Shown piece by piece: positions 5,661 to 62,805 of a stretch of 64,000 bases of DNA (positions within the stretch are counted from its first letter, which is position 1; the number at the start of each line of letters is the position of its first letter). The translations under genes were made by a program, and so were the position numbers. The stretch lies in assembly GCA_008632985.1 (NCBI GenBank), contig QPGO01000031.1:496001-560000 (forward strand). Direction: 5' to 3'. Below the pieces are notes generated by a model. It was not told the DNA's origin, searched no databases, and saw nothing but the letters and a program-made list of their open reading frames with translations. This DNA is from Psammoneis japonica. Lineage: Eukaryota.

Positions 5661-5903
5661 TGTCCGTCGTCAGTTTCCGTCTCTAATAATAACCCTGCAC
5701 CACACCCACCGTACAGTACCGTACCTGCGCGCACCGCTCCTGCACACTGCAACACTGAAACTGCAACATGATGAAAAAAGCGGCACGGACGGGGAAGTGA
5801 AGCCAGCAATTCGATGCCATTGCGTTTGCCATTTGGCATAGTTCTGTGTTCCTTTCTCCTTCGTTTAGATTTGTCTCATTTTGTTCGGGGTCTTTCTGGA
5901 ACA

Positions 5904-36836: not shown

Positions 36837-37599
36837 TTGACCTTTCTCACTTTCGTGCATTGCGCTGCATTTGCAACTCATGTCAACTGCTTCTCGTCTC
36901 TTCGATTTCTTCGCTTTCAGTTGAAACCCTTTATGTGCTGTATCGCCAATCGAAATAGCGCCGGACAAGTGGATGTCGATTGCTGATGCTTTATTCAGAA
37001 TTTCGTGTGATGCTTGCGATGCATTGTGAATGAGTGGGAACTGCCACTTTGTGACACCCGATTGGTCAAATCGTTGGTTACTATGTATATACTTCATCGT
37101 TGACGAATGATGCGAAAACGTTTTTTCCGTTGTATTCTTAACGAAATACTTCATCACTTAAGGTTACTAAATCATTAATTTATTTAAGGACATGTCGGCC
37201 ACCTCAGAAATAGTGGCACGACTGACACATCTCTCTCTTTGGCGCCAAAGACAAAGACAATGTGGCAACGCACACGCACTGCACTCTACTCTCTAGAGAG
37301 AGAGCAGTGGGCACAGCAGTGCGCGGTTCTTAGACTGGCTGTGTGGGACAATTGTGTGGGAGTGTGTGCACAATTCTGCCTTTGTTTCACGGCCACACCC
37401 TCTGCGTGTTTTTCTGTGTAAGCTCTGGTGCAGATGTCGCCTTTTTCTGACGGTGTGATGATGGTTCTCACTTGCCTGTTCAGACGTGTTCTTTTGTCGA
37501 CGTGCCATTGTTCTGTGATCATTGGCAATCTCATGCAGTGGAAAATGATTTGTGCCACACTCTCTTGGCTCATTTGCTTGACGTTCTTCTCGGCATTTT

Positions 37600-38330
37600 C
37601 TGTTCTTGTGTGCAAAGTTTCTGCACAGGTCTCAGCACAAATTCCATGCATTCTGCGAGTCATTTCAGACGGACGACTCATCAAACTGCCGATTGCTCTC
37701 TCTCCACACCTCCCAAGCATCAATGACCCCCCTTCTCTCCATTGTCCATTCAAGTTTCCTGTGTTGTGTGGTGAACATTTTCCCATCATTGCTGTTTTCA
37801 GAAGTTTGAAGCAGAGACCAGAGTTCAGTGTGCATTGGCCATCCTTCCGCTTGCCGACAAGTCTGCACAAGTTTCAGCACAAGTTCCATGTGTCACAGAA
37901 ACATTTTCAAATGGCTGACCTCCCAATCTCCTGACTGCTCTCTGTCCATCCCTGCCAAGCACCAACGACTCCCCTTTTACCTGCTGTCCTTTTAAGTTCT
38001 CTGCTTTGTGTGGCGGACACCCCTTCTGTCCTTGCTGCAACCAGAAGTGTGAATTTGAGATCAACTGGGCTTGATTTGGCTCTTTGCCTGTTTGCCAATG
38101 CTTCCTGCTAAGTTCCTGTGCAAGACTCAGTGCAAGTTCTGTGTGTCATGGAAACATGTTCTGACAGAAGATCTCCCAATCTTCTGATGGCTCTCTGTCC
38201 ACACCTGCCAAGCTCCAATGACTGCCCCTTTGCTCAATGCTTTTTTAAGTTCTCTGCTCTGGACAATGAACTCCCTTTTGTTGCTGCTGCTGTCGTGAGT
38301 TTGACTTTGAGACCAACTCAGTGGTCGGTG
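37600..38330 (+). repeat. Three diverged ~245-bp tandem units
   Basis: gctctct(c/g)tcca..cct.ccaagc..caa(t/c)gac recurs near 37695, 37937 and 38189. Confidence 0.7.
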
Positions 38331-40949: not shown

Positions 40950-42200
40950 AACCTCATCCATTTTTTGAAGCTGCGCACATTTCCTGCATGACAGTGTTGC
41001 CAAAAAAATGCTGGAATGCTGGAGTCCAACAATGCCTCTGTGTGCTCTGCCCACAGCTGGGTGACCCCAATCATCCATGAACACTTCAGCATGGTTGTGT
41101 TCCTTTTTAACAAGGACAAGGAGGGCACTGCCGAAGGCAACCCAATGGACATTGTGGGGTGTGGGCTGGGCCTTTTTTGCTGGCCCAGTGCCAAGCACTT
41201 GATTCCCAGTGTGACCCTGACCCTTGGCATGCCAATCACTCTGAAAGTTCAGTGTCCCTCTCTGGGATTTGCTTGCAGCAGCACTTTGTGCCGCTGCCCC
41301 CCAGTGCCAATGCCGCCATGCCAGCAACTCCAAATGCATTGTCATTGTCCCGGAGCACAACTTCTGGCAACTCCAAGAGAGCTCTCATGTTTTCCCAGAA
41401 CACAACCTGGAAAATGACAAGAATCACTTTGGAGATCTTGGATTTGCAGAAACAACAGGGCTTGAGCCATGGAATGACACCAGCACACCCATCCATGCTG
41501 AGCAGCAACAAACTTTCCTGTCAAGAGTTTCTTCATGTGCTCTTGCACAGTGCACAGCCATGGACCATCACTTGTGTGTCCATCATCCCAATTTCTTTTT
41601 TGGGAAACTCAAGAATGGAGCAATGAGCAGGGCATGCTGCATGATGATGGTTGGTGTGCATGATGTGTGACATCTGACTGGCTGTCACATTTGACCATTT
41701 GGCAGGTTGACTGCTCTCTGTTGCTGTCTGACCATGCTTCCTCTGGTGTCTGTTGCACTCTTGGATGAGCTCCCTGGTTGGCTGTGGTGCAGGCCATGAG
41801 CACCAGACCTTGAGCTGAGGCTCCAGATCTGGGGACCTGAATTTGGAGCTCCAACCAGAGAGCTGCCACCCCAAAGGAAGGCAAGCAAGAGGCCTGCACT
41901 CAAGCAACAAGTGAGGCAAAGGTGAAGGTGAAGTGGGAGGGGAGCTGTGCAATGGCTCCTGGGCCACAAAGCAAAGAGCTGGGAAGGCCACAGCACCTCC
42001 ATGGAGAACAGCCAAGCAGTGTCATGCAAGCAGCACAGAGGACAAGCAAAGGAAGGCAAAGCCAGTGGGGAGCAAGGTTGGATGAGAGCTGTCAAACAAG
42101 GCAGTTGGGCTCCACCAGATGTGGAGGATGCATGCTGAGCTGCTCTCACATGCCATCTAGCTGCACCACAGCCAGGTGTTCAACTTGGGCAGTGCCAGTC
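40950..42200 (+). mobile_element. Degenerate CRE-like non-LTR retrotransposon (RT and downstream region)
   Basis: KEGTAEGNPMDIVGCGLGL (cf. EGVTQGDPL.M..YGLG), PWHANH (cf. PWYADD), SKCIVIVPEHN...FGDLGF..TTG and PSML...LSCQEF. Confidence 0.65.
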
Positions 42201-42249
42201 TCAAGGCAGGCATCATGCAAGCTGGCTGCTGGAGAAGCATGGCACACTC

Positions 42250-43300
42250 CCAGAGGCTCACAAGAAGGTGTGCCAAGCCTCCAGGCTTGGTGAGTGCTGC
42301 AGCAACAAATTGTGCAGCTCTCTTTGCAATTTGTTGCAGCAAAGCAGAAGGTGCAGCTGGGTGGCCTCCTCAGAGAGCCTCCAACACCAAGGCAGAGCAA
42401 GATGAGCAGAGGCACAGAAGGCAGAGTCAACCTCAACAAGCACCAAAGGCATGTCAGTCCACTCACCTGCTTCATCATTGAAAGGGATTGACACACAAGC
42501 TTGACCCTTTAGAGTCCCACTCTAAGTGCAATTGGCAAGACAACTGGTGCATTGTCCAAAACAGCACAAAAGCACCAGGCAGCAATCAAGCGGTGCAGTG
42601 TGGTGTCAATGGAAGAAAAGAGCCACACAAGTGTTGACAATGCATGGGGCCCTTGGCATTGACAAAAGGCTCCTACACTCAGCTTTCAATGAGCTTTGTG
42701 GGGAAGCCCATGCACTGGATTGGCACAACCAAGCAATTGCACAAAGTTGAGCTCAAGGCTCCACAACCACCCAAGCATGCACAGGGTGTCAGACAACTCC
42801 TCCTCAGAGTGTTGGTCACATGAGACCAAGCAACTGACAAGCCAAGACCAGAGGTTCTTGTCAAAGCAAGGCTCCACGAGATGGTCATGTGGCAACCACA
42901 AGTTGCAGTGAGCTCCAACTTGTGTCATGATCTTGCCATGGCACCACAATGCTTTGGAGAAGGCCCAAGCTGCTTGAGTGCTGATCACCCAGTCAAGAGC
43001 CATGGCAATGCAGAGGCACAGGAAGACGCCTGTGCTGGTGTCTTGAAAAAGGTGCTGCACATGATGTCAAAAGCTCTGGGCCATCTCTCTGCAGGCAAGC
43101 AGCAGAAGGAAATTTGATGCATTTCTCAACTGGCCAGATGACAACAACCCAACAATTGTCAGTGTCAAAACCCAAGAAGCAAAGAAGATGGCTGACAATC
43201 ATGCCATCCCATTTCATGTGGCTGAGCACCAGAGTTGGTCATGGACTCTTGTCTGAGAATCCAAGCACAGTGAAAGCTGTGATGGCATTGATGGCTTAGA
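42250..43300 (+). mobile_element. Possible second degenerate CRE-like LINE RT fragment
   Basis: SAFNEL and FLSKQGST resemble NAFNE and FLSKEGVTQGD; heavily decayed. Confidence 0.4.
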
Positions 43301-44279
43301 GAGTGCATTCCACAGTGTGTGCTGTGGCATTGTTGCACAAGGTGTTCCATGGAGTCTGTGCAACACCTTGATGCCTTGAGACAACCATCAAGCTTTCTGA
43401 TTGTAGAATGACAAGAACAATGAAGATCCAACTTGTGGTGCACTTGCTTCTTGCATTCATCCTTGACCCTCAATGATGCAATTTGCAAGCCTCCAATTGA
43501 ATTTCAGAAAATGAGCCCACCAACCTGTTCTTCTCTGAAACAATGGTCTGGAAACTCATTGACTCTGCCTTGAATTTAGAGTCAAAGAGGTTCATGTCCT
43601 TTGTGTTTTTGACAGAGCCATCACCAGGAGCGTTTGCACTGCATCGACACAGCACCATGGTCCAAGCTTTCCTGCTTGCCATTCAGCCTGGCTCAACTGC
43701 ATTGTGCCAACCTCCACATTGTCTGAATCATCCAGTTTGTTCCAAAATTCCAAAAACAATCTGGGAAAGTTAACAAGTGGGGCCATCCTTTGTGATGGAC
43801 ACACATGCCTGCCTTGGACCACACCCCGACTTAACCATGATGTGGACACGACATGCACAGAGTCATGCCTCTTTGCCAAAAACATGCAGAAGACGAATCT
43901 AACTTGCACTGCTTTGTTCTTCTCACCCTTTGTGAATGCACTCAAGCTGCAGTTCTGTCATGTGTGTCTTCATCCTTTGACAAACTGGGATCTGTCCATT
44001 CCCACGGCTTTGGAGTCTGACAAAAGAAGAGCAGATTTGTGACAGAAAATCATCTTGCCCCACTTGGTTTGCTTCTTGATTAAACGCACCCATTTTCCTT
44101 TGGCTGCTTCACAAGATTGGGTTTGTAGGGTGTTCTGCCGTCAAGACATAAATTGCACAATTTTGAAGTGGAAAACATGATTCTGCCCAATCTCAGATGT
44201 AAAACAAAGCCAGCTCTCAAATGCTGACAGTGACAAAATTTTCTGTTGTGTCTTTTCCCAGTGCAAATCCCACAGCAGC

Positions 44280-45520
44280 CACATGAATTTGAAAATTCAT
44301 GCTGCAAAATGCTCAAATCATCATCATCTCCTTTGGCCCAGAAACATTGTTGACAAATTGCAAGAGCAAAAGGTCAAGAGCACATCAATGCATCTTGAAT
44401 GTCTTGATGAGCTTGTTGAGTGCAGTTGGTCCAAATTCAGCCAAAGTGTGCTTTTGTTGGGCTTTTTTGCAAACTTGCACACATCAGCACCCGATGGAGG
44501 ACAACATGATTGCTGAAGCCCAAAGACATTCCATGCCTTCCCCTGTCAACTCTGCACATGCATGGCTTTTTGGAGTCAACATCACATGCACTTCCATGAT
44601 GCACATGATGCTGTGAAAGGAGCACAGCTTCATTTGCAAAATCTTCACAAGAGGCAAGCACTTCTGCCAGCTTTGCACATTTTTTGCACAACTTAAGTGC
44701 TGATCTTCTGCCCCTCCTTTTTCATGCTTCAGGTTTGCACCAATCAACCCCCTTTCAACCAAGACTTGCAGCAACCCCTTTGGTTTGCTGTGCCAACCTC
44801 AGAGTTTCTTCTGCTCCATCTTTTTTGTTGCTGGAGCACTTGCTTTTTCACAGCCATCCTGCAAATTCTTCCTTGCTGTGCCCTTTGGCATGGCACAGAT
44901 GGAGTTCTTGCTGGTCAAGTCATTCTCCAGCTCTTGCCAGAGTTTCTCAGCAGGAGCTCCATTTGTCATTCATGGTGTCATTCCTTTTCTCACAGTTGCT
45001 CCTCCTTTTCCATGGGGCTCAGTGTCATCCTAAAATGCCATTGATTGTGTGTCACCAGCTTGCAATCTGCAAGCATTCACATGCCATCCCATGCATTTCT
45101 CTGTCAATTTGGCATCTCTCATCATGTGTTCCCCATCCCAGGTTCATCTCATGTGCAAATGAGCTGTTCTCCATCTGCTTTGAATGGCCCATGACAGTGG
45201 CAAAAAAGAACATGTGGTCAAAATCAGGGCTCCTCATTTCTGCAATTGTGTTGACACACAGTCCACAATGTTGCAAGTCCAGCACCTTTCATTGTTTTGG
45301 CTGCACTGAAACTCACATGTGAGTTGTTGTTTGTTGTGTTGTCAAAGCTTTCTTCTTTGTGCTTCTCATCCTCTGGCATCCATTGCTGCTGCTTCATCAC
45401 AGTGGAGCACTCCTTTCCTTTTTCATTGGCTTTCTCTCAAACAAAGCATCACTGAGATCTTTGCAGCAAGCCAAATGCCAGGCATGTGAAAAAAAGAGGC
45501 TCTGGTTTGCAACCAATGCA
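44280..45520 (-). mobile_element. Degenerate IS630/Tc1-like DDE transposase
   Basis: PDFDHMFFF...GHSK...MNLGWG; LQVLVERGLI; LASCEDFANE; LTPKSH..AELTGEGMECLWA (cf. TPKYHAELAGEGIEYSW). Confidence 0.7.
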
Positions 45521-46699
45521 AACACCAACACAGCATGGCAGTTGGGCTGGTTGTCACCAAGCAGTGCCATTTTCTGCCAGCCACTTTGCAGCATGATGCT
45601 GACAACACTTGCCCTGACAACTCACACTGCTCTCACTCTCACTTCCTTCCTCTCCTTTAAGACATCCAAGGACAGCCCAATGCCAAATGGCCTTTTTTTA
45701 TAAGTTGGTTGCCATGCTCTCAATGTCCCATCCAGAGGCAACTGAGACTGACACCCAGCTGGAAAATTGACAACATCAGACAAAACATCAGTGCAATCTC
45801 ACACCACCATCTTGACAAAGGTGGTGTTCCATGATTGTGAACAGGTGAGAAATTTGGCAACAGTGTGACACAGAATGATGTCCACTTGTGCAAACCCTGC
45901 AGGACAAGCCACAAAAGGGTTTGTCATGGTGGTTGTGAGTGAGGTGTCCCTGGCAAAGCCTCACATGAAGAAAGCATGAGTGGAGACTTGCACTCTGACC
46001 CTTGTCAGCAAAAAGGAGCAACAACCCAAGAAAATGAGCAAGAAGATGTGCTTGACAATGTCTGCCAGCCTGGCTCATGGTTGGTCACATCACAAACATG
46101 GCCAACCATGCAGCTCTTGTGCTTGTTTCAACAAACACAAGAGCAAGGCAGGGCTCCCAACTTGTGGCTTGAGCAACAGGAATTTGGACAAGAAACCTTA
46201 AAAGCTTGCAACCTCCCTGGAGACTGGCCTGCTTCAGCCAGAAATTTGCAGACTCATCAATGACCCCACCCCCAATGACAAAAAATGACAAGGACAAAAA
46301 AACAAGTCATGTGCTGACAGTGAAAAGGAAAATGCAACACCCAAGAATAAAAAGAAGGACATTGACAATGGAAGAGATGGCAAGGAGGTTGAAACTGCCT
46401 CAAAGGAAAGAGCACATTTGGAGGAGAGCACTTTCGCCTCAGCTGCAGAGCACATCATTCACAAGGCACATGGCAAGACATGTCACTTGATGACAGATCT
46501 CATTGGTGGTGTGGTGGAATGTCAGACAATCAACACTGTCAAGAGTGTTGATGCTGGGCAGCACCTGCTCATGCCTGCCAAACAATGCAATTTCATGGGG
46601 TCAAAATGTGAAAATGGGGAGCTCAGAGAGGTTTGCTGCACTCCAAATGGCAGTTTTGCAGCAGGGTTGCAATGCAAAAAGAGCCAAGGACATCAGAAC

Positions 46700-48000
46700 C
46701 CTGTTCACCAGGCAAACAGCAGATGACTTGGGATGTGGGTGAGCATGAGATGCTCATCCTTGTGATGGAACAACTTCTTGAAAGCCATCTTGAGTCCACT
46801 CTGGAAAAGGGAAAATTGCCAGAGAGCAGCATGCCAAGACATTCAACAGAATGGCCCCATGTCAAAACTTGCAGGAAGCAGCAAGATGCATTTCTGAACA
46901 TGAAATTTGTGGATTGCTTGCACACTGAATGACATTGATGGAAAGACCAATGAGCCCATCTTTGATGCACTGCACTCAAAACATCTTGATTTAAGAGTTC
47001 TTGAAGAAGAAAAAACAGCAAACTGCTGGAGCTTCAACACATCATCACAGACAGTGCAACAGAGACCATGACAAGAAAAATGTTGAGGAGACTTGTTTGG
47101 GACAGATGCCAGCATGGCATCAGATTGGCTGCTCTGCCACAGCAAAAGCCAGTGGGTTGCTCAGGGAAGCATTGCGTGTGTTCACAAACTGCCTGGCAAA
47201 TGAGTCTTGTCTCCCATGGGCAGCCTGCCAAGCAATGACAATGACATTCTTGGTGCCAGAAAAAAATCTGGGCAGCCATCAGGTCTTGAACTCGTGGAGG
47301 TCTGGCACTGTGCCATGCCCAAGTCCATTCTTGCAGTTGCTGGATTTGAAGCCAAGGAAGCCTGTCGCATGGATCAGCTTTGTGCTGAGCTGGAAGCAGG
47401 TGCCCAAGAGTGAGATTCAGATGACATGGACATGCTCTGGGAGCAACACAATTGAAAACAACTGTGGTTTTCTGTTTGTTGAGACCTTCAGCAGAGTCAA
47501 TGCATTGAATGTGATCTTGATGCTGCACAATGTGAGGCACAATCTGGGACAGGTTTGCTGTCAGTTTTTTGCAAGCACTGGGTGATCCCAGTCCTCCATG
47601 GACACTTTGGCATGGCCAAGTTCCTTTTCTGTGAGAAGGTGCTGTCCAAGAAGGTGATCCACTGGGCATGGTGGCACATGGGCTGCACATGGGCCAAGCC
47701 TTCTTAAACTGGTCCAATGCTCAACACTTGAGATTTCCCAATGTGCTTGCTCCTTGCCCCTTGGCATGCCAGCAACTCTGCTGCTGTGGGATTTTTCTTT
47801 GCACTTTGCACCATTGGTTGCAAGCATGAATGCCACCCTGTTGACAACTTTGAGAATGTTTTCATTTTCCCAGAACACAACCTGGAGAACACCAAAAATC
47901 ATTTTAGATGTCTTGGAGTGGGGGGGATTTCATTGGCAAGAAGGATGTGCACAACCAGCAGATCAATGCAAATCAAAGGCACAGACCTTGGCAGTCAATG
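46700..48000 (+). mobile_element. Degenerate CRE-like non-LTR retrotransposon RT
   Basis: KASGLLREAL...LANESCLPWAACQAM, VAGFEAKEACRMDQLCAELEAG, GFLFVE...MLHNVRH, EGAVQEGDPLGMVAHG and PWHASN (cf. WYADD). Confidence 0.75.
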
Positions 48001-50244
48001 AGGTCACCAAGATCATGATTTGTCACCCACAGACCACTCCTCACACCAGTCTTCAGAAGTTCCCACAGCATGAGTGGCAATGTGTGCAGCACATCATTTG
48101 AGGATTGCACAGAAAACCCATTCCCCCCCAAGATGGAGCCCATGTTGGGGGACGTTTTACCCCCTCAACAGGTCCTGCCCCTGCACCCCTCCACTGTCAC
48201 ATGCAGAAGGGTTGTGCCTCAACTTGAGGTTTCCCATCTGTGTTGCATCATGTCAAAGCAAATCACCTGGCTTGGCTGTGTTCCCATGATGTCACCCATG
48301 AATGTCACTGCCCCAATTCTGAGACTTGTTGATGTCACACTGTGACATAATTTCACAACGTCAGATCCTCCACCCCAAAGGGATGACTTCACCATCACAA
48401 TGTCAGAATTTTTGATCTGGCCCATCTGCCTCATGTGCACGTCACACCCAAACTCTGAAGTTGGCATTTGTGCTGTCTTGCATTGTGCATTTTCCATCTT
48501 GGCTTGGCTGTTTCACCCACTCTGATGTTTTGTGCATTTCAATGCATGACAGAATCATCATGCAATGGCTGGCAATGCTGCGCTGTTTTGCTGTTTGTCA
48601 GACCATCATGTTGTGTCCATTTCTGCCAAATCCATCACCGTTGGATGCCCTTTTGTTTCTTCTGGAGACGCCCCCTGCTCTGCAACTGTTGGTCACCGCA
48701 AGCAATGCAACATGTCACCCAACAGCACCCATTGTTTTCTCTGCATCACACATGCATCCTGCTCTGCAGTCATTCTCCATCCTCTTGGTTTGCAATGTTG
48801 CATTTGAACCCGACAACAAGCTCTTGCCCATGAATGAAATTTGCAGCTGTGAGAGAGCCACGCACCATTCTTGTTGTAAAGGAAATGACAATGCAAGACA
48901 CACATGTGGCACAAACTTGCCTCTTCAATGTGAGTCTTTGTCCTCCTCTGCCTGCTTGGTTTCCCACTCTGCATCTTAAAGCAAACCTTGCAGCATCAAT
49001 CTTGATCGTTTCTCTTGTCTGTGGCATCCAGCCCATTCATTGGCCATGTCGTTCTGCTGGCCATGATGGTTTGGGGGTTCCTGTTGTTGGTGCCTTTCAT
49101 GCGGCAAGGATGACCAAGTCCACCCCAGCAGCACTCCAGTTGTTCATGTTTCATGTCCAATGTTCAGTCGAAAAGTCGGTTTGTGTGTTGGTTGCAGCTC
49201 CATCAGATGTGTCCTTGGCAGTTTTCAAAGTTTTCACGGTTGCCATTTGCAGGTGCTGGAAACGTTTGTCACTGAAGTTCTTAATTTTGATTTTGAACAA
49301 TGATGACATCCAGCTGTGGATTTGTTCAATGTGGTCATTTTGAAAAATGCAGATGTCCAGCCTTTAAAAAAGGCTTTTTTGAAACTTGTGTTTTCCTTTC
49401 TGATGAAGCTCCCTCTCGCAACAAACGTCCAATTTCCTTGTGACGTGGATGCCTTTTTTGTGCTGTGCATCACAAATGCAATGTCAGATTCTAGCTGCTG
49501 AATGGGCACAATGCTTTTGCACCACCTGCAGCATGTGCCTGCCATCAACAGCACCACTGTTGCCCCTCCCCATGCCTGGCATGTTGCCAAAGCAGTTCCT
49601 GCTTGCTCCATGGCAGAGTTTGCATCTTTGCAGCTGGCATTGCCAGAGCCCCTCCCCGTGTGCCCAATGTGGGTTGACAGTGCATTGCCGCAGCCCCTGG
49701 CTCTGTGATTTGCAACGTGCTCTGCCACAGCAGAGTTCATTTTCCATGATTTCTGATTCACCATTTTGTTGTTTTTGTGCAAGTGCATCCATCACTGTTG
49801 GTTGTCATGTCCTCTGCAGAGTTTCAGAGTTGCCACAGCAGCAAGTGAACACCAACAATCCACACGCACTGGCTTTCAGGGACAGCTGAACCCTTTTGAC
49901 AGAGATTTCAGGTGTGTGCAACATTGATGGCACTTCTTCCTTGGAGAGGTGCCACTCTCAGTCTTGCCAGGGAGGCAAGCCCATTGCTCTCTGAGGCCAT
50001 CTTGATGTTCAGAGGTTGGGGGGGGAGCCACAGGCATCCCAGGCCACGCGAACAACTTTGCACAAAGACATCACCTGGGTGCAGCTGCAGCCGGCAACCC
50101 GGGCAGTTGCTCAAAATGTTTAGAGACAAGAGCAACCTTGTCTGCCATTCATGGCCACCAGACTTTTTGAAAAGTGGCAGATTGTAGATTTAAAAACAAA
50201 AGAATGCTCTTCACCCTTGGACCACTCCACATGATGGCATTCAA

Positions 50245-50465
50245 TGTTGGCATCCACTTGAGCCACCCAGCAAGTCATTGGCATCTGCTTGAGCCACCCA
50301 GCAAGGTGTCGGCATCCTCTTGAGCCGCCTTGCATGCTGCAGTGTCCACTTGAGCTGCCCCATTTGAAGTGGTGTCAACTTGAGCCACCCGCATGATGTG
50401 GCATCACACTTGAGCTGCCTGCATGACATGGTGTCAACTCAGCCACCCTGCATGATGTGGTGTCT
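50245..50465 (+). repeat. ~30-bp minisatellite, about 7 units
   Basis: Head-to-tail cttgagcc(a/g)ccc...gg(c/t)(a/g)tc units. Confidence 0.8.
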
Positions 50466-50999
50466 TCCTGCAGAAGTGTGGACAAAGATTGAAGGAAAAC
50501 AAGAAGTTGAGAAAACAAAAAAAACAATGCATTGAATCAACGGAATCCATCAAATGCTGTGGAGTGATTCATTTGCTGAGAATGTGAGAATGAAACAACA
50601 GCACAATGACAGACGCAGTTTTTGTTCATTTTTGGACTGTCTCTCACCTCTCTTTTCACAGATGTGCTTGTCAGAGCAAAACAAATCATGTCATGCATTG
50701 GCACTGTTGTCAGGAAAGCATTTGGCAGCAAAATTGGCAATATTTGTTGATGCCATCATGGTGACAGAGAAAAATCTAATGTTGAAATGACGAGAAAGAA
50801 AGGTTTGCGACACAGGGAGGGAAATCTGACCTTGTTTCATGACGTCCCATGACGTTTCACAACAGTGCATCAGAATCTGACATTGTGGTGGTGACATCAA
50901 CAGGATCGGAAAATGCCAAGGTTGCGCTGCAGTTCCAGAGCCACGAAAACTGTTTTCTAAACCAAGGGCATCATGTTCATTGAAAGATCTGGACAGGAA

Positions 51000-52400
51000 C
51001 ACAACAAAGCATGGCCATCAAATAAAAATGTCTGGTGTGACATGGCCAAGTGGAGGGAGGTCAAGATGAGGGAGGTTTGGGGGGTGAGTCACCTGAGATG
51101 GTGCACCCCTGACATGGACACCCAACATGAGGGACTCCATTGAGAGGGAGTCCCTTGCAATGGCAAAAACACCCTCAAGCTGGGCAAAGTCTGATGAAAC
51201 CCATTTCCTGTGTGTGGCAAGCTGTTTGCAGATGTGGAAGTTTCTCCAGCATTGGCTGGCAAGATCCCAGTGGGTGCAAACACAAAAACAGCCTTGTTGT
51301 TCTCCCAAGAAAATTTGCAGGACTGTCCATCTCTCTCATCCAATGGAGTCTGTGGTGCAGAGCCACAAAACAAATGCTCTTGCATGCTCTCACATGATCA
51401 ACTTGCTGCACAGCTGCTCAAAAGCCACCTTGGCATTCCACAAGGACATGATTTGTGAAGTGAAATGAGAAGCACAGCTCTGAGGAAAGCACAAGTGCAT
51501 CATGAGGAAACCTTGAGATTGAGACTCTCAAGACTCTCCACCTGCAGATGGCCCAAGCCACAGGATGCAGTGCCAAGGCTGGCACATGGCTGTCAGCACA
51601 CCCATCCATGCTGAATGGTGCCAAACTCTCCAGCCAAGAGTTTTGCAACACACTCTGTGCTGTTTGGGTGTGCTTCACCTGATCTGCCTGGGAATTGCAA
51701 TGGATGTGGGTGCAAGTTCTCCATCCATTCAACACACCCTTCAGCTCAAGAAGCCCCCCCCCCCCCCCCCCCAGGTCATCCAGCGACATGACCAGATTCA
51801 TGACAAGCCAGCAATCTGTTGTTGGCAAAGGCAACCAAGCCTTCCCAAATGCATGCATGATGAACCTGTTGTTGACCCTTGCCACACCTCAGGAGTCCAA
51901 ATGCAAAGAGAGCCAACAACCCCCAACAGAACTTGCTGAGCATTGCTGCAAACTCAAACAAGATGGGAGATGGCAGCTGTTGAGATGTCTCAGTCTGCAG
52001 TGGGTGGGGAAGAATGGCGGATGATGCAGTCATGGATGTCAGAGTTGTTGACACAGACACGAAGTCATGCTTGTCCAAGACACCAGAACAGCTTCTGTTG
52101 GACCACAAAAAAGCAAAAGCACAGCACAAGTCTCAAGCCTTGCCTTGAACAACATCACAGGCCTGCTTGGCAAAGAGGCCAGGGGCAACTCTGCACTCAA
52201 CAGCACAGCACAGTTGGCCAACAAATGGCAAAAGCCACACTTGGAAGTGCTGGGCTTTGTTGGTGTGAGAATGAGAGCTGTGTGCAGCAACGGCAAGGGC
52301 AGCAGCCCGCCTTTGCCTGTGGGACTCACACATCCCACTGTCCTCTCAGATTGGCACCAGATGCGCTCAATGGGAAAATGGCACTGGTCCATCTCTCCAC
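51000..52400 (+). mobile_element. Degenerate CRE-like LINE 3' part (zinc knuckle and restriction-like endonuclease region)
   Basis: GTWLSAHPSMLNGAKLSSQEF; GLLGKEA...LANKWQKPHLEVLGFV..RM (cf. LA.KW.KPYSEV.G+V..RM). Confidence 0.65.
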
Positions 52401-53783
52401 AAGTGCCAGATCAATTCAAGACTGGCAGAATCCACATGTGCTGAGACTCAGCAATTGTGTCAATGTCCTGCACTTTGAGGTCAGTTTGACCAACCCTGCA
52501 GGTTGTCAAAGCCCATCATGAGAATGGGTCCAATGCCAGGTTCCATTCAAACCACCCACCCAAAATCCAACTCTGTTTGCATGGCTGCATCAACTGCACA
52601 AATTCCCTTTTCTCATGTTGAGATTGAAGCACATCAATCAGTTTTGACAAAACAGATGTGGTGCATGTAAAATCACATGTGAGCTGCACGTCATCCAGTG
52701 CGAAAAGCATGCCCCGAAGCACCGAGTGAACAAAGTGCCCTGTGGTTGCATGCACTGGGGATGAGACCAAAGAAATCTTGCAACATTGTGCCACTTTTCC
52801 AGAAGTGAGATCCACATCTGAGGAACTGCTTGATGCCCAACTGCCAATGACAAAGCACAAAAACCTGTCCCAAGTTGATTGCGGGGTAAATTCTTCAGTC
52901 CCTCAAGTCGATGAATTGGACAATGAGCCAGCTTGACCCAACTCATGCTCTGGCCACATCTGGTCACTCTGGTGTGACAAGGAAACCCTGGCAACCTGGG
53001 CTGAACCCTCCCCCCAAGGGGAAAGGGAGCTGGATGTGATGGACAACTGGTCTTCACAGATGTCGTGGAGGATCATCCCCACAAGTTCACCTCATTTCAT
53101 GCCACCACACATGATCTCAGTTGTGAGATCCACCGGATTGCATTCCAAAACAAATGTGCCCAGTGAGTGACTCACCCATTGCCATGGACTCACTCATGTC
53201 ATGGCGGCAAATGGAGCTTGACTTCTTCTTCAAAGCAGACTCCAGACTTTGCCTGTTGTGGACAACTGACATGTTGTCCCCACAGATGCAGGGTGGCCAG
53301 ATGATGGCACACCCATCATCCTTGACTTGTGTTGCAGGCCATGCAACGGCTCCATGCCCTGCTTCATGGCTGCAAACTTGGCTCCAAAACCAGGGTTTCA
53401 ACTGCAATGTGCGCTTTGAAAACCACATCATCAAGGCCATGTTTGCGCAGATGAAGAAGCCGGTGTGTGAGCGCCTTGTCAACTTGTCATTCGCATGATC
53501 CAAGTCAACAAACAAGTGCAGATCAACCTCCAAGCTGGAGGTTCTGGCGCACTGGGTGGGATTGTTTCTTGCACATCCCCGCAAAATGACTTCCAGCCAC
53601 ATTCCTTGAAGTCAGACGTGTCAATGTCTGGGTGTGTCAGGCTGAACAATCTGGCATTGTGTCTTGCCTTGAGGTGCCCACAGACATGGAAAACAGCCTC
53701 AAGATGACCCTCCCTGGGCATGGCAAGAAACAAGGCAAGCTCAGAAACCTCCATCATCAGATTGATGTGTCCAAGCTCCGCTG

Positions 53784-54230
53784 TGCAGCATGCATGCAGA
53801 CAAAAGGTCATTTTTGTCACACCCTTTGTGACATTTAAAGGCTGCAACACGTCGCCGTGATGCATTGACTCTTGTCAGCAGCTGTGTGTTGCACTCCTCC
53901 CCATGCATCACGCGTCCATGCGGCTCTTTACTGACGTGCACTGACACTGCACGGTTTTGGCGGAACAGTGTGGGCACGTGCGAAGGAACACGCAGAACTG
54001 CACAGAGTTTTGCGCGTTCGACAGTGATCAACGTTGCTGCAGGCAACTCCCACTCAGGGTTTCGAACCCCTGGCCTCCTGCCCAATGGTTGCGATGAACC
54101 ACTCCGCCATGAATTCACAGTGCAGCATGCATGCAGACAAAAGGACATTTTTGTCACGCCCTTTGTGACATTTAAAGGCTGCAACACGTCGCCGTGACAC
54201 ATTGACTCTCATCAGCAGCTGTGTGTTGCA
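53784..54230 (-). mobile_element. TRIM (miniature LTR element): 110-bp LTRs, 227-bp interior, 4-bp TSD GCTG
   Basis: TG...CA direct repeats at 53784-53893 and 54121-54230; GCTG at 53780-53783 and 54231-54234; PPT ggggaggag on the minus strand next to the left LTR. Excision restores the Copia RT frame GVLQWTAELGH. Confidence 0.9.
54045..54116 (-). ncRNA. tRNA-derived segment with Pol III A and B boxes inside the TRIM
   Basis: A box TGGCGGAGTGG (54109-54099), D-stem GCGG/TCGC, GGAGGC variable-loop-like segment, B box GGTTCGAAACC (54068-54058); anticodon arm shortened. Confidence 0.7.
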
Positions 54231-57099
54231 GCTGTCCATTGCAGGACACCTGCCTGCAACTGGCAGAACGGGACTTTGTCTGCTTCTGGCTCAGGCAATG
54301 CATCCAACTTGGGGCGGCAATCCTGTGGAAGTGGATGATGCCCAACATGGCAATGTCTGTCCAGGGTGGCATTCGTCCAGACGCGCCTTGACATTCTTGA
54401 CAGCCTGCTGGGTGCACTTGCTGGAGCTCATGTCCCATGCACAAATGCCGTTTGGCATCTGCACCTCTCGGATCTTGGCACCCAGACACATCTCAGGGTC
54501 GCCGATTGAACCAGGCTTCATCTTGAAGCAATGGCCCAACTCCTTGAGTGCCCTTGTGGCATCGCGGTGTGCCATTGGTGCATGTCTGCATGGAGCAGTG
54601 CACGTGCACAGTGTCAGAGGAACCTGTCCTTGGGCCGGACCATCTCCCCAAGCCACACATCGGGATCAGCCAAGCAAGGCTTCCACCCAAGGTGTTGCAT
54701 GCCTTCCTGCATCATGGCCAAACTCTGGGCCTGTGGTCACAGCAATCTTCTCACCATCTGCCTTGACCTCCAAATCATTCAGAGCAACCAGAGTGAAGGC
54801 AATCCTTGCACTCTTGCACGATGCGACACTTGCACATGTCAAGGTTGTGGGAGCATTGGCGGTGTGTCCACCAGCTGTGCAGCATGCCTTGTGCTCAAAG
54901 TCCTGCAGCTTTGTGTCAAAGACCAAGTGACACTTGACATGCTGGCATCCAACCAGTTCCTTGCCATCATCAATGATCTCAAATGCCTTGTCAATGATGC
55001 CCATCTCCTTGTTTGTGGCATCTTGCCTCAGACGTTTGTTGTTTGCCTTGTTGATCTTGACAGCCTCATCTCATGTCTTGGGAATGTGTGTCCTGGTTCA
55101 TCCTCAATTGACTGGGCTCCAGCACACTCAGCCAACTTGACAGGATTGGATTCCTTCAAGTCTGCAAGGTGTTCCCAAGTGGTGGTTCCATCTTTCCAAC
55201 AAACACAAAGGTGCCATCCTTTGGTCATCTCATGCATCATGGTTTGGCATCCTCTGCTGTCCTGTGGGAAGGCGTCATCCTTCTGGACTGCATGCCCATC
55301 AGTCTTGTGATCAATGATTGCTTCCAGCGGCCTTTGTTGTTGCATTGTGCAAAAATGTTCTTGGCTGTGATGTTGGCCATGAACTCTGCTTCCTGTCCAT
55401 CAGGAAATTCGACCTCATGTGTGCAAGTGTCCAGGATGGGATTGGCACTGGCTCCACCCATCAGTGTTCCATCTGAATCGAGCTTGCGCTGTTTGACTGT
55501 TCCAGTTTGTTGGGTGTCCCCATGAGGCAGCAACAGCACCTCTGAGTTTACACAGACATCAAAGGCAGCATTGGGAATGTCATCCTCATTGGGTGCACTC
55601 GCAGGAGCATCCTGGTCTTCATCATCCTCGTGCAGATCAAAGGCAGGAATCACTGCATTGGGGTCATTGATGTCTCCAACTGTCACACCTGGACCTGGCT
55701 TGGCCTCCATTGGCCCATCAAATTTCTCACACAATGCCACATGCATCTGGTGGTGCTGTTCCTCTGGGCTCAAGGGTCAACAGGATGAATGGTGGACAAC
55801 TTGTCCATTGTCTTTCAGTGTCATGGTGGGACCCACATCTTGACTCGGACCATGGTGCTGATGCCCTGGGACTTCCTTGTCCTCAGGGAATGAGGCTGCA
55901 GTGCCCCTGAACATGACCCATCACACCAAAAGTCACACCAGCCAAACTCACACATGTGCAAAATGTTGGCTGTCTGTCTGGACAGCGTGGTTTCTGGAAC
56001 CTCTCCATCTAACTTGCAAATGTCGTGGATGATGTTGGATTGGATGAGAGCTTCAAGCTCAAGACAATCATTCCAAAGACTTTTTGGGGGCTTGAGTCTT
56101 CACCATTTTTTGTCTGACACCCCGCATGAGTTCACAAACAGTGCCCTCAGCGAAGTTGGACCATGGGGTGTGGGGTTCAGTCTGCTTGATGTGGCAGTCA
56201 GCCTCGCTGGCCTTCTTGCTGAACTGACCCAATGTCCACTCCTTTGCCCCATCCATGATCATTGTGTGGGGTGCACCATTTTGCATGAAGAGCAAGGACA
56301 GAGCCTCATGAGACAATCCTTTAGATCTCAGGGGACAAGCCCATGCCCAACCATTGGACATGCCAAAGAAGACTTGTGTGCAGTTGTTGCCCCTTCTTGA
56401 TTCAGTTGAGGAGATCAAGGTGTCAGAGCACATCTCCTTTGCAATGCGCCTGTGTCGCAACTGTTGGTCGTTGGTCCAAAACCTTCACAACAGTTGGATG
56501 GAGGACCATTCGCATGGCATGCTGCATTGTGACTTTGACAGCATTGTCAGTGTCCAATGCTGACAGACCAATTCTTGGCCAACCATTCTGCATCAACGTG
56601 CAGTCCCCGCTTCATTGTCTTGAGTGAAGAGAAACTGATTGAGGCTGGCAGCGTGCAGTCATTGCATGCATGCATGATGTCTCAAAGTGGCTGATTCCCC
56701 AGATGGTCTGAGGTCTTTTGAGCTGTGGTGCATGAGAGCTTTGTGCTCATGATTTGAGTCTGAGGACACGCATCATCCCCAGTCTCAGGCATGCATCCAA
56801 GAGAGTCCATCATGGAATCCTCTCTGGCTTGGAAATTGGCAGTTTGTGGGTCCCATTTGGGGGACTTGCATGCAAGTTCTGCTGCCGTGCCATCTTGCAT
56901 GGCTGCTGCTTCACACTCTGAAGCTGTGGGTTTGGAGGTGGGAAAGCAGCTTGTGATGCCATGCAACTCCAATGGAATCAGGAGTTTGTCCCCATTTGCA
57001 CCAGTCAACATCACCGCATGTGACTTGCTGTCAGGCTTTGTCAGTGGAAATTTTGGTTGCAGATTGACCCCTGCATCATTCAGCCACAGCTGCACAGGA

Positions 57100-57990
57100 T
57101 CCTTTCTACCAGATTTGAGGTTGCCATTCTTGTCATGCCAGTTGTTCATCATCATGTCCTTCAATGACTGAAAGTTGGAGTGGCTGCACTTCTGCTTGAT
57201 GGCAGGCCACTGTGTTGGTTCCTTGGACTTGCAGCATTGTCCTGCTGGTCCTTGACATGGGCAGCAATGGCTGAGACTGTGCTGGTGAGGACCTTGACCT
57301 GCTTGGTGTTGTCCACAGCAGACGTTGTGTCCTGGGTCCCACGGGCATCTCACAGAGACTTGAGCTTCTTCTGCACCTTTGGGTTCAAGGTGCGGGATGT
57401 GCACAGCCTGGTGGACTGCCAGGATGCACAGGTGGCCCAAAGTGGGATCCGCACATGCAACAGCTCCACTGATGGTGCGCAGACTCTTGCTGGTGCCCTT
57501 TTTTGGGTTGCAACCTGTGACATCTGCTGGACAACCATGGTCAAGTGTAGTTGAAGCATGCTTGCCTGGTGTGCTCATGTCTGCATGACTGTCAATCTCA
57601 GCACAAGCTTCAGTGTGCACAGCATCCCTCGTGGTTGTTTGAGTGATGTGCAGGGCTCAAAGTGGACTGAGACACAGGGTTGGAGAGGATCAGCATTCCT
57701 TCTCCTTTCTGCCAGATTTGAGGTTGCGATTCTTGTCATGCTGGTTGTTCGTCATCGTGTCCTTCAATGACTGAAAGTTGGAGCAGCTGCACTTCTGCTT
57801 GATGGCAGGCCACTGTGTTGGTTCCTTGGACTTGCTTGCAGCATCATCCTGCTGGTCCTTGACATGGGCAGCAATGGCTGAGACTGTGCTGGTGAGCACC
57901 TTGATCTGCTTGGTCTTGTCCACAGCAGACATTGTGTCCTGGGTCCCACGGGCATCTCACAGAGACTTGAGCTTCTTCTGCGCCTTTGGG
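57100..57990. repeat. ~280-bp internal direct duplication within the Copia (57100-57383 and 57703-57990)
   Basis: Near-identical ccagatttgaggttgc.attcttgtcatgc...cacagagacttgagcttcttctgc.cctttggg in both copies. Confidence 0.9.
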
Positions 57991-60228
57991 GACATTGGCT
58001 TGCACTCCCTGTCAGAGCAGCACTTGTCCTTGACGTCTTGTTCATGAACGATGTCATCACATTGGCATTTGGCAGCCTTCAAGAAGGCAGCAATGCAAAG
58101 CTTCTTGTTTTCATTGTCTGGCTTGGACTGCTTGATGAAGTCTTTGTGCAAGACAACACACCCATCAAAGTTGCTGTGCAGCATCATGCTGGTCATGATC
58201 TGGGCTTTGATGGAGTCAAGGGGGACACATTCTTGATGCTCTCTAGAAGGTGGCGCACCTTGGAGTGTTCGTCAATTCCAGCACAGCCGTGCTCTTTGAG
58301 GCCCTCAATTGCAGAGTGCTGTTCAATGTGAACATGCACTGGGCACTCAAAGTTCCAGCTTTGGCACTCATGGTGGTGGGAAAGAAGTGCTGAGTGCTTT
58401 TCAGCCACATTGGCCATGTTGTCTGTGTTGTTTGGACCCAAGAAGTGGTTGTGCAGGTTCAGCAGGTGGGCCGTCCTGCTGTCCTGACCATGCTGAGCCT
58501 TCTTGACATGTGCCCAACATGCAGATGTTCCCGCATGATTCCGGCAACAATCTCCACACCTTGATGTCATTGGTGGTGAATGTTTTGGTGGGTTGCGGGT
58601 CAGCCCCAGCAGTGAAGTGGGGGGCACAGGCCATCATCTCAGCACGGGCATTGGCATGGTTCTTGGCATCGTCGTCCGCCTCCAGCATCACCGCCTGATT
58701 CTCTTGGACCAGCATGCAGTGACAGTGGGCAGGGTGTTGGGGTTCTCATGGGTGGTCTCCACCACATGGAGGTGGCGGTGCCCCCCGACATGCTCAAGAA
58801 GAGTGATGTCAATTGCGCGCAATGCCAGTGAGATGCACTTGCAATGACTGGCAGTGAAAGCTGCGAGATTGAGATTTGTCTCAGCCTGCAGCAACACACG
58901 GTCATCCCCAGGTTGGGTTGTGGATTTACTCCACCACCCGCTGCACCTCCTGGGCAATGCATGACCTTGCATGGGGTCTTGACCTCATGGTCATCAAGAT
59001 GATGCAGTTCCTTGATGGTGTTGATTCCCTGGTCAGCAGCAAGGGCCGCTGACGCTTCATTCGTGAAGCTCAGTCTGTGGTGTGCAGAATGCATGGCTGC
59101 AACGTTTCGGGCTGTTGTCAATGGCTTGGTGGTTTGATGATGACAAAAACTTGGTTCACACAAGTTGTGCGGTTCTCACATGAAAAGTGAGCAAGTTGCA
59201 CGAAGTTTGCATCACTTTTTCATTGTCACATTTGCTCCATCAGTTCATCTGATCAATGTGTCTGGAGATTGGATTCCAATGTTGTGTCTGCATGTCACAA
59301 TGCATGAACATCATGCAGACTGGAGTGCCAACTCTCATTGGACATGCATGATCACACACCAATGCATGCCATTGTTCCCAAAGGTCAGCTTGACCCACAG
59401 CAAGTGTGCAACACAGTTGTTGTGGATTGTGTCACGTGAACACATTCGCAATGGATGTGTGTGTGACTCACTCAGTGATTTCAAATGGCTCATGCATCTG
59501 CCTCTGAGATGACTTTGGCATGGAAATGGTGTCCCAAATCCATCAATTTGCACTCTGTGTTCGCGCATGTGCGCCATGAAAAACATCAGAACAGACGATG
59601 CTGCAGTTGTCAACAAGCACCGGAACTCGCACCAACTCTGGGAGTGTGAAACTCATCAAGCATGAATGCTTCTTGCATTTGCAGATGTTTGCACATCATC
59701 CCTGACTCATGTGGAATGTTTTGTCTTTGTTGCGGTGCATCGCAAGCACAGCACTCATTGTCACTGTCGCTGCACATGGCAACGGCTCTGACAAAGTGAA
59801 CAAATTACCCTGTGGTCGCGTGCACCGGGGACAAGACTAAAAGAAAGCTTGTGACATCATGCCACTTTTCTAGAAGTGAGATCTACATCTGAGGAACTGC
59901 TCGACGCGACGCCCAATCGCCAATGACAAAGCACAAAAACCTAACCCGAGTTGATCGCGGGGTAAATTCTTCGAGAGCGAGAGATGGCGAGCGTCGGATC
60001 AAATTCGAGCTCGTGAAAACACCGCATGCAGTGGTATCCGCGTTCATCGTTCTTCAAGTTTTGCTTGGGGTGACCTTTCGATCCGCAACACTCTCACTCG
60101 TGTTGCCCACCTTCAAGCTGGCTGTTCGTTGACTTCCTTCTCATTAATCAGAGCATCAAACTCTCTCTTTTATCCAGCAAGTGTGGTGTGACCACATCTC
60201 TCTCTCTCTTTCTAAAACTGTTTGACCC

Positions 60229-62805
60229 ATGATGAACAGTTCCATCGACGACGATGACAAAGTTCGCGGCAGCGCCAAGAGCGGCAGCTTGAAGGACGAC
60301 GAAAAGGAGAAGCAACTGGAAGAATTTGAAGAAACAATTCCAGCGGGAGAATCCCCCGCTTCTTCTCATGACAAAAAGAAGAAGCGGCAAACTGCCCATT
60401 CCCGCCGTCAAGAGCAGCAACAAGCAGAAGAAAACTTTGCGGTCGAAGAACAAAAAGAGGAAGAACGAGAACACCTCGTCGCTGCGGATGATGCTGATCA
60501 AGACACCGGCGCCTTGTCTTCATCTGATAATGCAGATGCTGCTGGAGCCGCTGGAGCTTTTGCCATCAGTCAAGGAGGAAGAGAGGTTCGAAGAGGAAGG
60601 AACGCTGACTACAATGTTTCGCTCTTGTCAATGCTTGACACGATACGGTCCGATGATCCAACGCCTCCTCCTCAAGATCAAGAGCAGTCTGCTCACACTG
60701 ACAATGGCGACACTCCACTCGTCGTAGCTCAATTGGCAGAGGAAGCGGAGGATGTCACAGCTCTTCGGCAAGAATTTGCTCGTCTCGAAGCAGGAATTCA
60801 CCAGGCACAAGTTGTAGAGGGGGTTCCCGCGGATGACAATGGTGTTGGTGGGCAGAATGATCAAGCAAAGGAAACAACACGAGTTGGGAAAGATGATGAG
60901 AACTCTGAAGAGGAGCTTCGTTACAAGCGCCGTAAATGGTTCATTGTTCTGGGCGTTGTAGTGTTGGCCATTGCAGCGATTGTCGGGATTGCTGTTGGCG
61001 TATCTTCTGGTGGTAGCGGCGACAACAGCAGCGGTGCTCCAGGTACCACTACGTCCAGTAAAGAAGCTTCTGGGTTGGTAATGAATTTGGTTGGCATCAG
61101 CAACGAGTTTGATGAAGACGACTCTGAATTATGGGCCACCGCAACCAAGGCATTTGTCGAGAATTATTACAACACTCGTCGTCGTCGTCGTGGCCTAGTC
61201 GGTCTCCCGCTCCGGATTTTACAAGTGTCAAATGTACAGGATGTCGTGACGACGATTCAAGTTACCAACACTGCTGTGGTCCAAGATGGCAATGGCGGAG
61301 AACCCTCCATTCAAATCGTGTACAACCAAGCCGTTACATATGCTCTTGACAGTAGCGGCAAAGATGTTTCCATGGATGTAATTGCGACCGAGCCATTCAA
61401 GACATCAGCTCTGAGGTTGGCCTATGTGAATGACCTCCAGTCGGCAGGTGAAAATGTAGGAAGCGATACTTTTGACAATTTGATTGGTGCGAGTGAAGTG
61501 TCAACAAGTACATCTAATCCAACGCCATCACCCACCAACAGCATTCCCGTCACAGAACCACCAACGCAAGATCCCATTACAGAACCGCCGACTGCAGTCA
61601 TTCCGACCAATTGGAATCCTCTTGGGCAAATCTTAAATGGCAAAGCTGACGAAGATTATTTTGGACAATCCGTCTCCTTGTCTCATGATGGTAGTGTCAT
61701 GGCTATCGGAGCAGATCAAGTGGACTCTTCCAACCCCGGCTATGTTGTTGTGCAACGATACAATCAAACTACCCGACAATGGACACAAATTGGCCAAGAC
61801 ATGATTGGACAAGCCGGCGGGGACAGTTATGGAAAGTCTGTTTCGTTAAATGGCAACGGTACAATTCTTGCTGTTGGAGCTGTATGGAATGACAGTGGCG
61901 GAGAAGATGCCGGTCATGTACGCGTGTTTTCCTACAACTCTTTCTTGGATCGTTGGGTTCAACTCGGTAGTGATATTGTTGGAGAAGGCGCTGGTGATTG
62001 GTCTGGTTTCTCCGTCTCGCTCTCGGACGCTGGAGACATTCTTGCCGTGGGAGCGCAGGGCGATGATACGGAAAATGGCGATGTTTCTGGATCCGCTCGC
62101 TTGTTTCAATATGACCACCATACATCCTCCTGGGTGCAGCTTGGGCAGAAACTAATTGGACAAGCCGCCGGAGATCTCTTTGGCATTTCCGTTTCCTTGA
62201 ATGCGCAGGGGACCATTGTTGGCGTTGGAGCAGATGATAATGATTCGGGTGGAGTCGATGCAGGGCAGGTTTCGGTGTATTAATACAATTCTTCTTCCTC
62301 AACATGGGATCCATTGGGTGATCCAATCAATGGACGAGTTGCTGAAGGTTGGTTTGGGTATTCTGTTTCTCTTGATGACAGCGGTTTGATCTTGGCCGTG
62401 GGTGCGTATGGAGTTGACGAGAGGGTTCTTGTCTATTCGTACGACCGTGCGACGTCTAAATGGAATCAACGTGGGCAAACTCTACTCACGCAACAGCCAA
62501 GCAATGATTTTGGTTTATCGGTGTCGTTGAGTGGAAATGGAAACGTCTTGGCGGTTGGAAGTGATTCGCATGACGACAATGGAATGATCGACATGGGCCA
62601 AGTTCGAATCTTTCAATACGACACCACGACATCCAAATGGAATCAAGTCGGAGATCCCTTGAACGGTGAGTCTGAAGATGATGAATTTGGACGGTCCGTG
62701 TCCTTGTCGTCAGACGGGAGGGTCGTTGGAGTTGGTGTACCTGGGGCCTACGTCAATGGCTCGGATTCCGGATCCGCGTATGCATTCACATTAAATAACA
62801 ATTAG
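60229..62805 (+). CDS. Single-pass membrane protein with Pro/Thr linker and FG-GAP-like beta-propeller repeats; in-frame TAA at 62281-62283
   Basis: KRRKWFIVLGVVVLAIAAIVGIAVGV transmembrane helix, PTPSPT linker and seven G.SVSL..G.(I/V)(L/V)A(V/I)G repeats; the downstream ORF continues in the same frame. Confidence 0.8.

Follow-up and report, generated by a model that had tools for sequence, protein, structure and literature searches.

Why do the two long terminal repeats (LTRs) of a single retrotransposon differ so unevenly, one copy carrying TA and CG where the other has CA or TG? The question is raised by a Ty1/copia element in a 64,000-nucleotide stretch of the pennate diatom Psammoneis japonica genome (contig QPGO01000031.1, positions 496,001 to 560,000, of assembly GCA_008632985.1; hereafter the window), in which dinucleotide composition alternates between genes and repeats. 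We find, with little room for doubt, that after insertion the chromosomal DNA has undergone A:T to G:C change on both strands, restricted to TpA, which has hit the repeat blocks and spared the genes. Taken as a whole, the pattern is best explained by a host mutator acting at 5'-TpA in silenced repeats, which on balance we think probable.

Repeat blocks depleted of TA and CG

The window consists of alternating gene regions and blocks depleted of TA and CG, the latter at approximately 3.9-5.7, 6.9-18.7 and 37.3-59.8 kb. Pooled observed/expected ratios (o/e) in the blocks are 0.043 for TA, 0.19 for CG and 1.85 for CA/TG, compared with 0.56, 0.97 and 1.20 in the gene regions, while for the remaining dinucleotide steps tested the two differ by 0.24 or less. 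TA o/e is 0.52-1.05 in seven stretches that separate open reading frames (ORFs) in the gene-rich parts, so the depletion of the blocks is not an effect of coding versus non-coding sequence. No look-alike stretch was found in the other genomes scanned. The full-length Copia element lies on the minus strand at the right-hand end of the largest block and is organized as follows:

37332..59805, no strand: TA- and CG-poor repeat block with the Copia element, from dinucleotide o/e
52727..52897, minus strand: 3' LTR (interior copy) with TG...CA ends, one TA and one CG left, from the LTR alignment; a contig in sequencing run X1 fits it
52898..52906, minus strand: purine-rich stretch resembling a polypurine tract, directly upstream of the 3' LTR
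53047..58897, minus strand: decayed Copia gag-pol (gag, protease region, integrase, reverse transcriptase, RNase H) with frameshifts and stops, from tblastn and hidden Markov model (HMM) domains
58928..59796, minus strand: start of gag and 5' leader, with no TA and CG partly kept, from dinucleotide counts
59797..59972, minus strand: 5' LTR (edge copy), which retains six TA and about 12 CG and lacks the terminal base, from alignment and contigs
60226..62805, plus strand: host gene for an FG-GAP repeat protein, adjoining the block edge, CG normal

Between the LTRs (52727-52897 and 59797-59972) there is a single collinear gag-pol matching residues 113-1881 of protein P0066 by tblastn, and tblastn and HMM searches place gag before protease, integrase, reverse transcriptase and RNase H, with integrase ahead of reverse transcriptase. 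The homologues carry RVT_2; among named proteins, those of Fragilaria crotonensis and Nitzschia inconspicua are the closest. We have refined the LTR starts to the TG at 52727 and 59797, the earlier note on this DNA having included an additional AG that both copies share. The interior copy is complete, ending in TTCA at 52897; the edge copy is without the final A (C at 59972, followed by G). Other contigs of the family run on from the LTR into a purine-rich stretch like that at 52898-52906.

Differences between the two LTRs

A global alignment of the LTRs has 147 identical columns out of 178. The six TAs of the edge copy correspond to CA or TG in the interior copy at five sites, with one TA (in GTAAA) kept in both, and its CGs correspond to CA or TG at eight sites, with one CG in common; all 13 losses are thus in the interior copy and none is in the reverse direction (P=2.4e-4). 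There are in addition three sites at which CA and TG are swapped, against 21 CA or TG sites that are unchanged. The background is low, with three transversions and one other transition at 94 other positions (4/94, compared with 5/6 for TA; Fisher P=1e-5), plus indels of 1 and 5 nt. The fifth TA site, at 59838, lies beside the 1-nt gap and was placed among the transversions by the step count, which therefore scored four, although the global alignment shows it to be a TA loss; the terminal CA/CG difference (52897/59973), possibly a small deletion, was excluded from the counts. As a control we used ten LTR pairs of related metagenomic elements, from which L040, L046, L062 and L078 (100%-identical terminal repeats, likely to be assembler overlaps) and a second hit on L034 were excluded. 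In these pairs TA sites differ at 26 of 127 (P=0.003 against 5/6), and two swaps stand beside 327 CA/TG sites without change (P=0.003, compared with the 3 and 21 of the Copia pair). The earlier note had quoted eight contrasts between the copies, and all eight are present in the sequence; its claims that TA is kept at the block edge and lost from the interior copy, and that CG is lost too, are borne out by these counts.

Logan contigs from run X1 carry the letters of the window over the edge LTR with no difference in one contig and one difference in another, at a depth of 56-60. A further contig, in which the 5-nt gap is accompanied by 13 other letters, fits the interior LTR; runs X2 and X3 gave no contig on the LTR stretch. 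Both LTRs have minority states, a C at 59886 and a T at 59888, that differ in 23 and 24 family contigs respectively, and they also share the states at 59823 and 59940, which differ in six and four. Since both copies share states that most family contigs lack, they come from one element or one close subfamily, and the possibility raised in the earlier note that the two segments belong to different elements is further countered by the collinear gag-pol between them. As a separate observation, contig depth at 59868-59893 rises to about 3500, from 56 in the flank, and most family contigs carry the other subfamily state at 59886/59888.

Polarity of the change

The direction of the change was examined at codons of the decayed gag-pol, using columns with conservation of at least 85% across 120 intact homologues. 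Tyrosine is kept in none of 16 such columns, its place being taken by six His codons, nine Cys codons and one CGC, whereas Phe (13/13), Trp (10/12), His (8/9), Cys (5/6) and Asn (14/16) are together kept in 50 of 56 (P=2e-11); all Tyr codons of the gag-pol have been lost. Change of His or Cys to Tyr is seen in 0 of 15 columns, and Arg is kept in 13 of 35, its losses being mostly through CG loss. In codons starting with A, that base has become G in eight of nine cases after T and in one of 85 after other bases. Because tyrosine is lost 16 times out of 16, His and Cys never become Tyr, and A to G change occurs almost only after T, TA is the ancestral state; the opposite polarity, with CA or TG ancestral, was what the earlier note had named as fatal to its interpretation, and the homologues give it no support.

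Both strands have been affected. At columns at least 70% conserved, tyrosine codons have resolved to CA seven times and to TG 11 times on one molecule, and the 39 inferred events comprise 21 TG and 18 CA, interleaved on one haplotype; no strand runs are evident (no formal test was applied), and changes at Ile/Val/Leu carry less certainty than those at Tyr. With TA ancestral, these outcomes uphold the proposal of post-insertion change on both strands.

The family itself points the same way. Over the edge LTR and leader, 31 of 34 listed transitions among family contigs fall on TA, CG, CA or TG steps, compared with 52% expected, in a comparison that covers 40 of 83 difference rows, with sites 59872, 59884 and 59792 outside them. 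At 59852-3 the window has TG and CA, but G>A is seen in 12 contigs and T>C in only ten at equal total depth, so that TA is most likely the reading of about two family contigs; site 59813-4 is ambiguous, its contig counts implying several states. Related metagenomic elements have TA o/e values of 0.47-1.18 in 80 of 80 cases, compared with 0.025 inside the Copia element. These 80 are the best of 480 matches to motifs containing Tyr and Arg, and are hence biased towards intact copies, so that the absence of a TA-erased locus among them says nothing about the range of the process. The primer-binding site was tried as polarity evidence and rejected: what we take to be an initiator-methionine-type motif fits with one TA>TG change, but the TA form is present in 0 of 80 relatives.

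Sequence context

The TAs that survive in the blocks (n=90) are strongly skewed in context, with 32 in TTAA, compared with 24 of 962 in the gene regions, and none in ATAC, ATAG or GTAC. All ten context counts are accounted for by a model with one rate for each 3' base (A 0.003, G 1.3, C 2.4, T 3.0), and the role of the 3' base is supported by the direction of change at TTAC tyrosine sites, which have become TTGC in three of three cases. The order of preference is TAY (where Y is a pyrimidine) > TAG >> TAA; an A followed by A is spared, and the requirement for a 5' T is strict.

Separation of TA loss from CG loss

Two further structures lie within the Copia element:

53784..54230, minus strand: nested 447-nt mini LTR element, like a terminal-repeat retrotransposon in miniature (TRIM), interrupting pol; LTRs 53784-53893 and 54121-54230, 110 nt, with TG...CA ends
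57100..57990, minus strand: internal duplication with copies at 57100-57383 and 57703-57990, 288 columns

The nested element has a 4-bp target-site duplication (TSD), GCTG, on both sides (53780-53783 and 54231-54234), and contains three TA and 23 CG in 448 nt. Between its LTRs there are two CA/TG swaps, a single CG loss and one transversion, and three CG and one TTAA are present in both. As the CG of this element is mostly intact, its swaps are most simply interpreted as TA resolved in opposite ways, and the presence of a younger, nested element under erasure suggests that the process has acted repeatedly. The inverted-repeat element at 10362-12912, with arms 79-86% complementary, has TA o/e values of 0.02-0.04 and CG o/e values of 0.41-0.57, and its arms at 10.9-12.5 kb differ by 19 CA/TG swaps. 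The internal duplication has one TA/TG difference, three swaps, four CA/CG differences and four other substitutions; not all swaps are TA-derived, because one of those here reads Trp/Gln in frame and points to an ancestral CG. At the block edges the TA-low domains extend past the CG-low domains. TA loss is therefore faster than CG loss and separable from it, given that the nested and inverted-repeat elements are TA-erased with much CG kept and that the TA-low domains are wider; CG loss is a separate, slower process.

A run of purines precedes the 3' LTR of the nested element, and its interior contains motifs resembling tRNA A and B boxes, although this interior gave no ARAGORN hit and no Rfam match near the gathering score. 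L022, a related Copia element with a long pol match, has a CG o/e of 0.01 but a TA o/e of 0.47, an instance of extreme CpG loss without TpA erasure.

The edge of the block

TA is absent from 58928-59805 (878 nt) and then occurs six times in 167 nt (P=1.5e-5), and the recovery of CG begins at about 59560. The earlier note held that the change is weaker near the block edge; the edge LTR does keep six TAs, but in this pair the recovery takes the form of a step, and the edge LTR is itself not untouched, having the three swaps. Recovery is graded at the 17.4-18.9 kb block edge, where tandem 355-nt repeats (17400-18900) have normal CG and have partly lost TA. In this pair the copy near the edge doubles as the 5' LTR and is approximately 250 nt from the gene; distance from the edge is therefore inseparable from 5'-LTR status or from protection by a promoter or chromatin boundary.

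Comparison with known systems

The closest published system is the hypermutation of nucleocytoplasmic large DNA virus (NCLDV) and virophage DNA in Bigelowiella natans, in which mutation-accumulation lines gave 231 de novo single-nucleotide mutations in two integrated viral regions, 230 of them AT>GC and all 230 at TpA (Mettrop et al., 10.64898/2026.01.13.699255). Activity in that alga is ongoing, at a rate raised 1000-fold. There too the change is TpA to TpG or CpA, on both strands, chromosomal, and in foreign or silent regions; TpA-poor coding sequences are enriched for reverse transcriptase and DDE domains, and ADAT2 is proposed, although not shown, to be responsible. The Psammoneis case differs in being in a stramenopile, in affecting LTR elements and other repeats, in the CpG loss alongside and in its +1 context rule; it is also near saturation (o/e 0.04, compared with a Rho of 0.45 in the B. 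natans NCLDV region) and is a fossil record, whereas the B. natans targets include a single-copy region and the mutations there were measured de novo. The available text of that preprint does not mention diatoms, CpG, LTRs or trinucleotides. The diatom process matches that of B. natans on every feature testable here.

Fungal RIP (repeat-induced point mutation), as found in Neurospora and other ascomycetes, is likewise confined to repeats, dinucleotide-specific and composed of both-strand transitions, and it kills transposons and stops near genes. RIP is further characterised by the sensing of homology, by premeiotic (sexual-stage) timing and by dependence on RID/DIM-2. In the window, repeats alone are affected and genes are spared, as in RIP. 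RIP changes CpA to TpA, however, a C:G to T:A change that creates TA and leaves it in excess, whereas here TA is removed (o/e 0.043) and His or Cys has become Tyr in 0 of 15 columns; the process is RIP-like in logic and outside RIP by direction.

The tRNA adenosine deaminases TadA and ADAT2-3 and the TadA-derived adenine base editors change A to G after T, and ABE7.10 prefers 5'-TAC and fails on 5'-AAA (PMC12595020), which resembles the preference for TAY and sparing of TAA seen here; the requirement for T is nearly absolute here, unlike that of the editors, and TAT is at least as good a target as TAC. The element itself is like the diatom Ty1/copia elements named CoDi (Maumus et al. 2009, PMC2806351) in its domain order, length (about 7.2 kb), LTRs of about 171 nt and TG/CA ends, and unlike them in LTR identity (83% of columns, compared with 94-100% in selected CoDi elements). 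Diatoms have DNMT5-dependent methylation of transposable elements and DNMT4 homologues, and the available portion of the paper on these enzymes describes no such mutation (PMC9998398). In the open PMC and bioRxiv literature, with subscription papers outside the scope of the search, we found no report of TpA erasure in a diatom.

Proposed mechanism and alternatives

We propose that a host mutator would rewrite A:T to G:C at 5'-TpA in silenced repeat domains, on either strand and after insertion, continuing through many generations of cells until hardly any TA is left, with ordinary deamination of 5-methylcytosine (5mC) removing CG from the same domains separately and more slowly. Whether a TadA/ADAT-fold enzyme, guided by silent chromatin, deaminates the adenine seems to us an evenly balanced proposition. 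In its favour are the strict 5' T and the disfavoured 3' A, as with ABE7.10, and the ADAT2 proposal for B. natans. Adenine would be converted to hypoxanthine and copied as G by an enzyme of the TadA/ADAT2-3 fold, recruited by, or given access via, the chromatin state of the repeats (CG methylation or histone marks, the silence being presumed). The edge LTR would escape in part through its boundary position beside a gene promoter, and the destruction of Tyr, of many Ile, Val and Leu codons and of TA-containing signals would leave the elements permanently inactive.

Several points weigh against this interpretation. The deaminase is putative, and A-centred and T-centred chemistry leave identical scars in the sequence. 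At tyrosine sites that offer a choice, A before T has mutated rather than A before C in six of six cases, unlike the TAC optimum of the editor; tetranucleotide excesses pointed the opposite way, to TAC > TAT. The baseline of the context fit is gene DNA and not the true ancestor, so that its rates are rough. The boundary is not fully clean, as TA o/e is 0.19, with CG normal, at 60001-61000, where the FG-GAP gene starts; either acidic composition or spreading of the process could account for this. All the read data derive from a single sample, which may be the source of the assembly and has no library type on record. Lastly, the Copia element has no clean TSD: its left flank, CCGAG, fits the right junction (CGAG) only on the assumption that 2-3 nt have been deleted there, which would also account for the missing terminal base of the LTR. 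The LTR pair may thus be the product of recombination between two close members of the family, although the polarity would stand anyway.

Of the alternatives, a thymine lesion survives best, although we consider it unlikely. A TET/JBP-type oxidase would mark the T of RpTpA (where R is a purine), giving 5-hydroxymethyluracil (5hmU) and then 5-formyluracil (5fU) or a larger adduct that mispairs with G, and so T>C. Strand symmetry makes such a lesion the equal of deamination as far as sequence can tell, and dinoflagellate 5hmU is enriched in repeats, where it is reported to take the place of T with a preference for TA and TC (PMC11572971). Here TC is spared, with GA>GG in only three of 63 Asp and Glu codons, and 5hmU itself pairs normally with A. 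In the available portion of the dinoflagellate report no 5fU was detected in the species concerned, and diatoms are never mentioned.

Loss of TA as a by-product of error-prone repair is considerably less probable. DNA polymerase eta prefers WA motifs (where W is A or T). A polymerase of this kind, filling repair patches at T:G mismatches left by 5mC deamination, would account for TA and CG loss in the same blocks, and polymerase eta is described as active in non-canonical mismatch repair. AA is not depleted, however (AA/TT o/e of 1.19 in the blocks and 1.12 in genes), AA>AG change (4/46) is no more common than other A>G change (4/83; P=0.45), TA has run out in places where most CG persists, and L022 illustrates that CG loss need not entail TA loss.

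We regard as largely refuted, and give still less credence to, change before integration, whether by A-to-I editing of element RNA, by errors of reverse transcription or because the LTRs come from different diverged elements. The Copia element is without a clean TSD, and TSD-less recombinant CoDi elements exist in P. tricornutum (PMC2806351). Editing of sense-strand RNA, which yields TG only, is excluded by the seven CA and 11 TG tyrosine outcomes on one molecule; reverse transcription makes both LTRs identical, the minority family states shared by the LTRs argue against different elements, and the same pattern is seen in the nested element with its perfect TSD and in the inverted-repeat arms with their 19 swaps. 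A sequencing or assembly artefact from misread modified bases is scarcely credible: it is favoured by the single sample and the missing library record, but contigs independent of the assembly agree with it letter for letter at single-copy depth, a single haplotype has CA and TG outcomes interleaved, the pattern is fixed and particular to each copy of the family, and the B. natans changes were Sanger-checked (10.64898/2026.01.13.699255). Reversed polarity, in which a fungal-type RIP made the edge-copy TAs from CA or TG, draws on the inability of the LTR pair alone to polarise these states and is virtually untenable, being refuted for the coding part by the tyrosine counts (lost 16/16, gained from His or Cys 0/15) and opposed by a block that is TA-poor and not TA-rich and by the approximately two family contigs that most likely read TA at 59852-3.

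Implications

Silenced repeats normally mutate with an AT bias, through 5mC deamination or RIP, and a targeted eraser of A:T to G:C is the opposite; in the open PMC and bioRxiv literature we found a comparable eraser only in the one preprint of 2026, which concerns a rhizarian alga. With a saturated case in a diatom, TpA hypermutation is extended to another lineage of the stramenopile, alveolate and rhizarian (SAR) group, and to transposons. The context fingerprint, TAY > TAG >> TAA, is usable for finding the enzyme, and diatoms offer CRISPR genetics for this. Dating by LTR divergence, as well as repeat annotation, will be biased in such genomes, and a natural DNA adenine deaminase, if one is responsible, would be of interest for base editing. 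More tentatively, and rather against our expectation, there may be a conserved, SAR-wide genome defence, whose agent would be a natural DNA adenine deaminase that is guided to silenced chromatin and there removes TAY irreversibly from every repeat. It would be the A:T counterpart of RIP, with a double-stranded DNA adenine editor of a kind so far only evolved in the laboratory; the diatom would then represent the process at saturation, and its nested LTR pairs would serve as a clock.

Other features of the window

The HD-domain gene at 5775-6593 lies in a 1.2-kb island of normal TA and CG between two erased blocks, a very local instance of gene sparing. Short repeats at 41390-41530, 47865-47917 and 51594-51643 are common to distant parts of the large block and are probably relics of another repeated element. 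The window also contains an AP-3 beta exon, whose nearest named relatives are in Nitzschia inconspicua (83%), a Bacillariaceae metagenome-assembled genome (82%), Cylindrotheca fusiformis (81%) and Seminavis robusta (79%).

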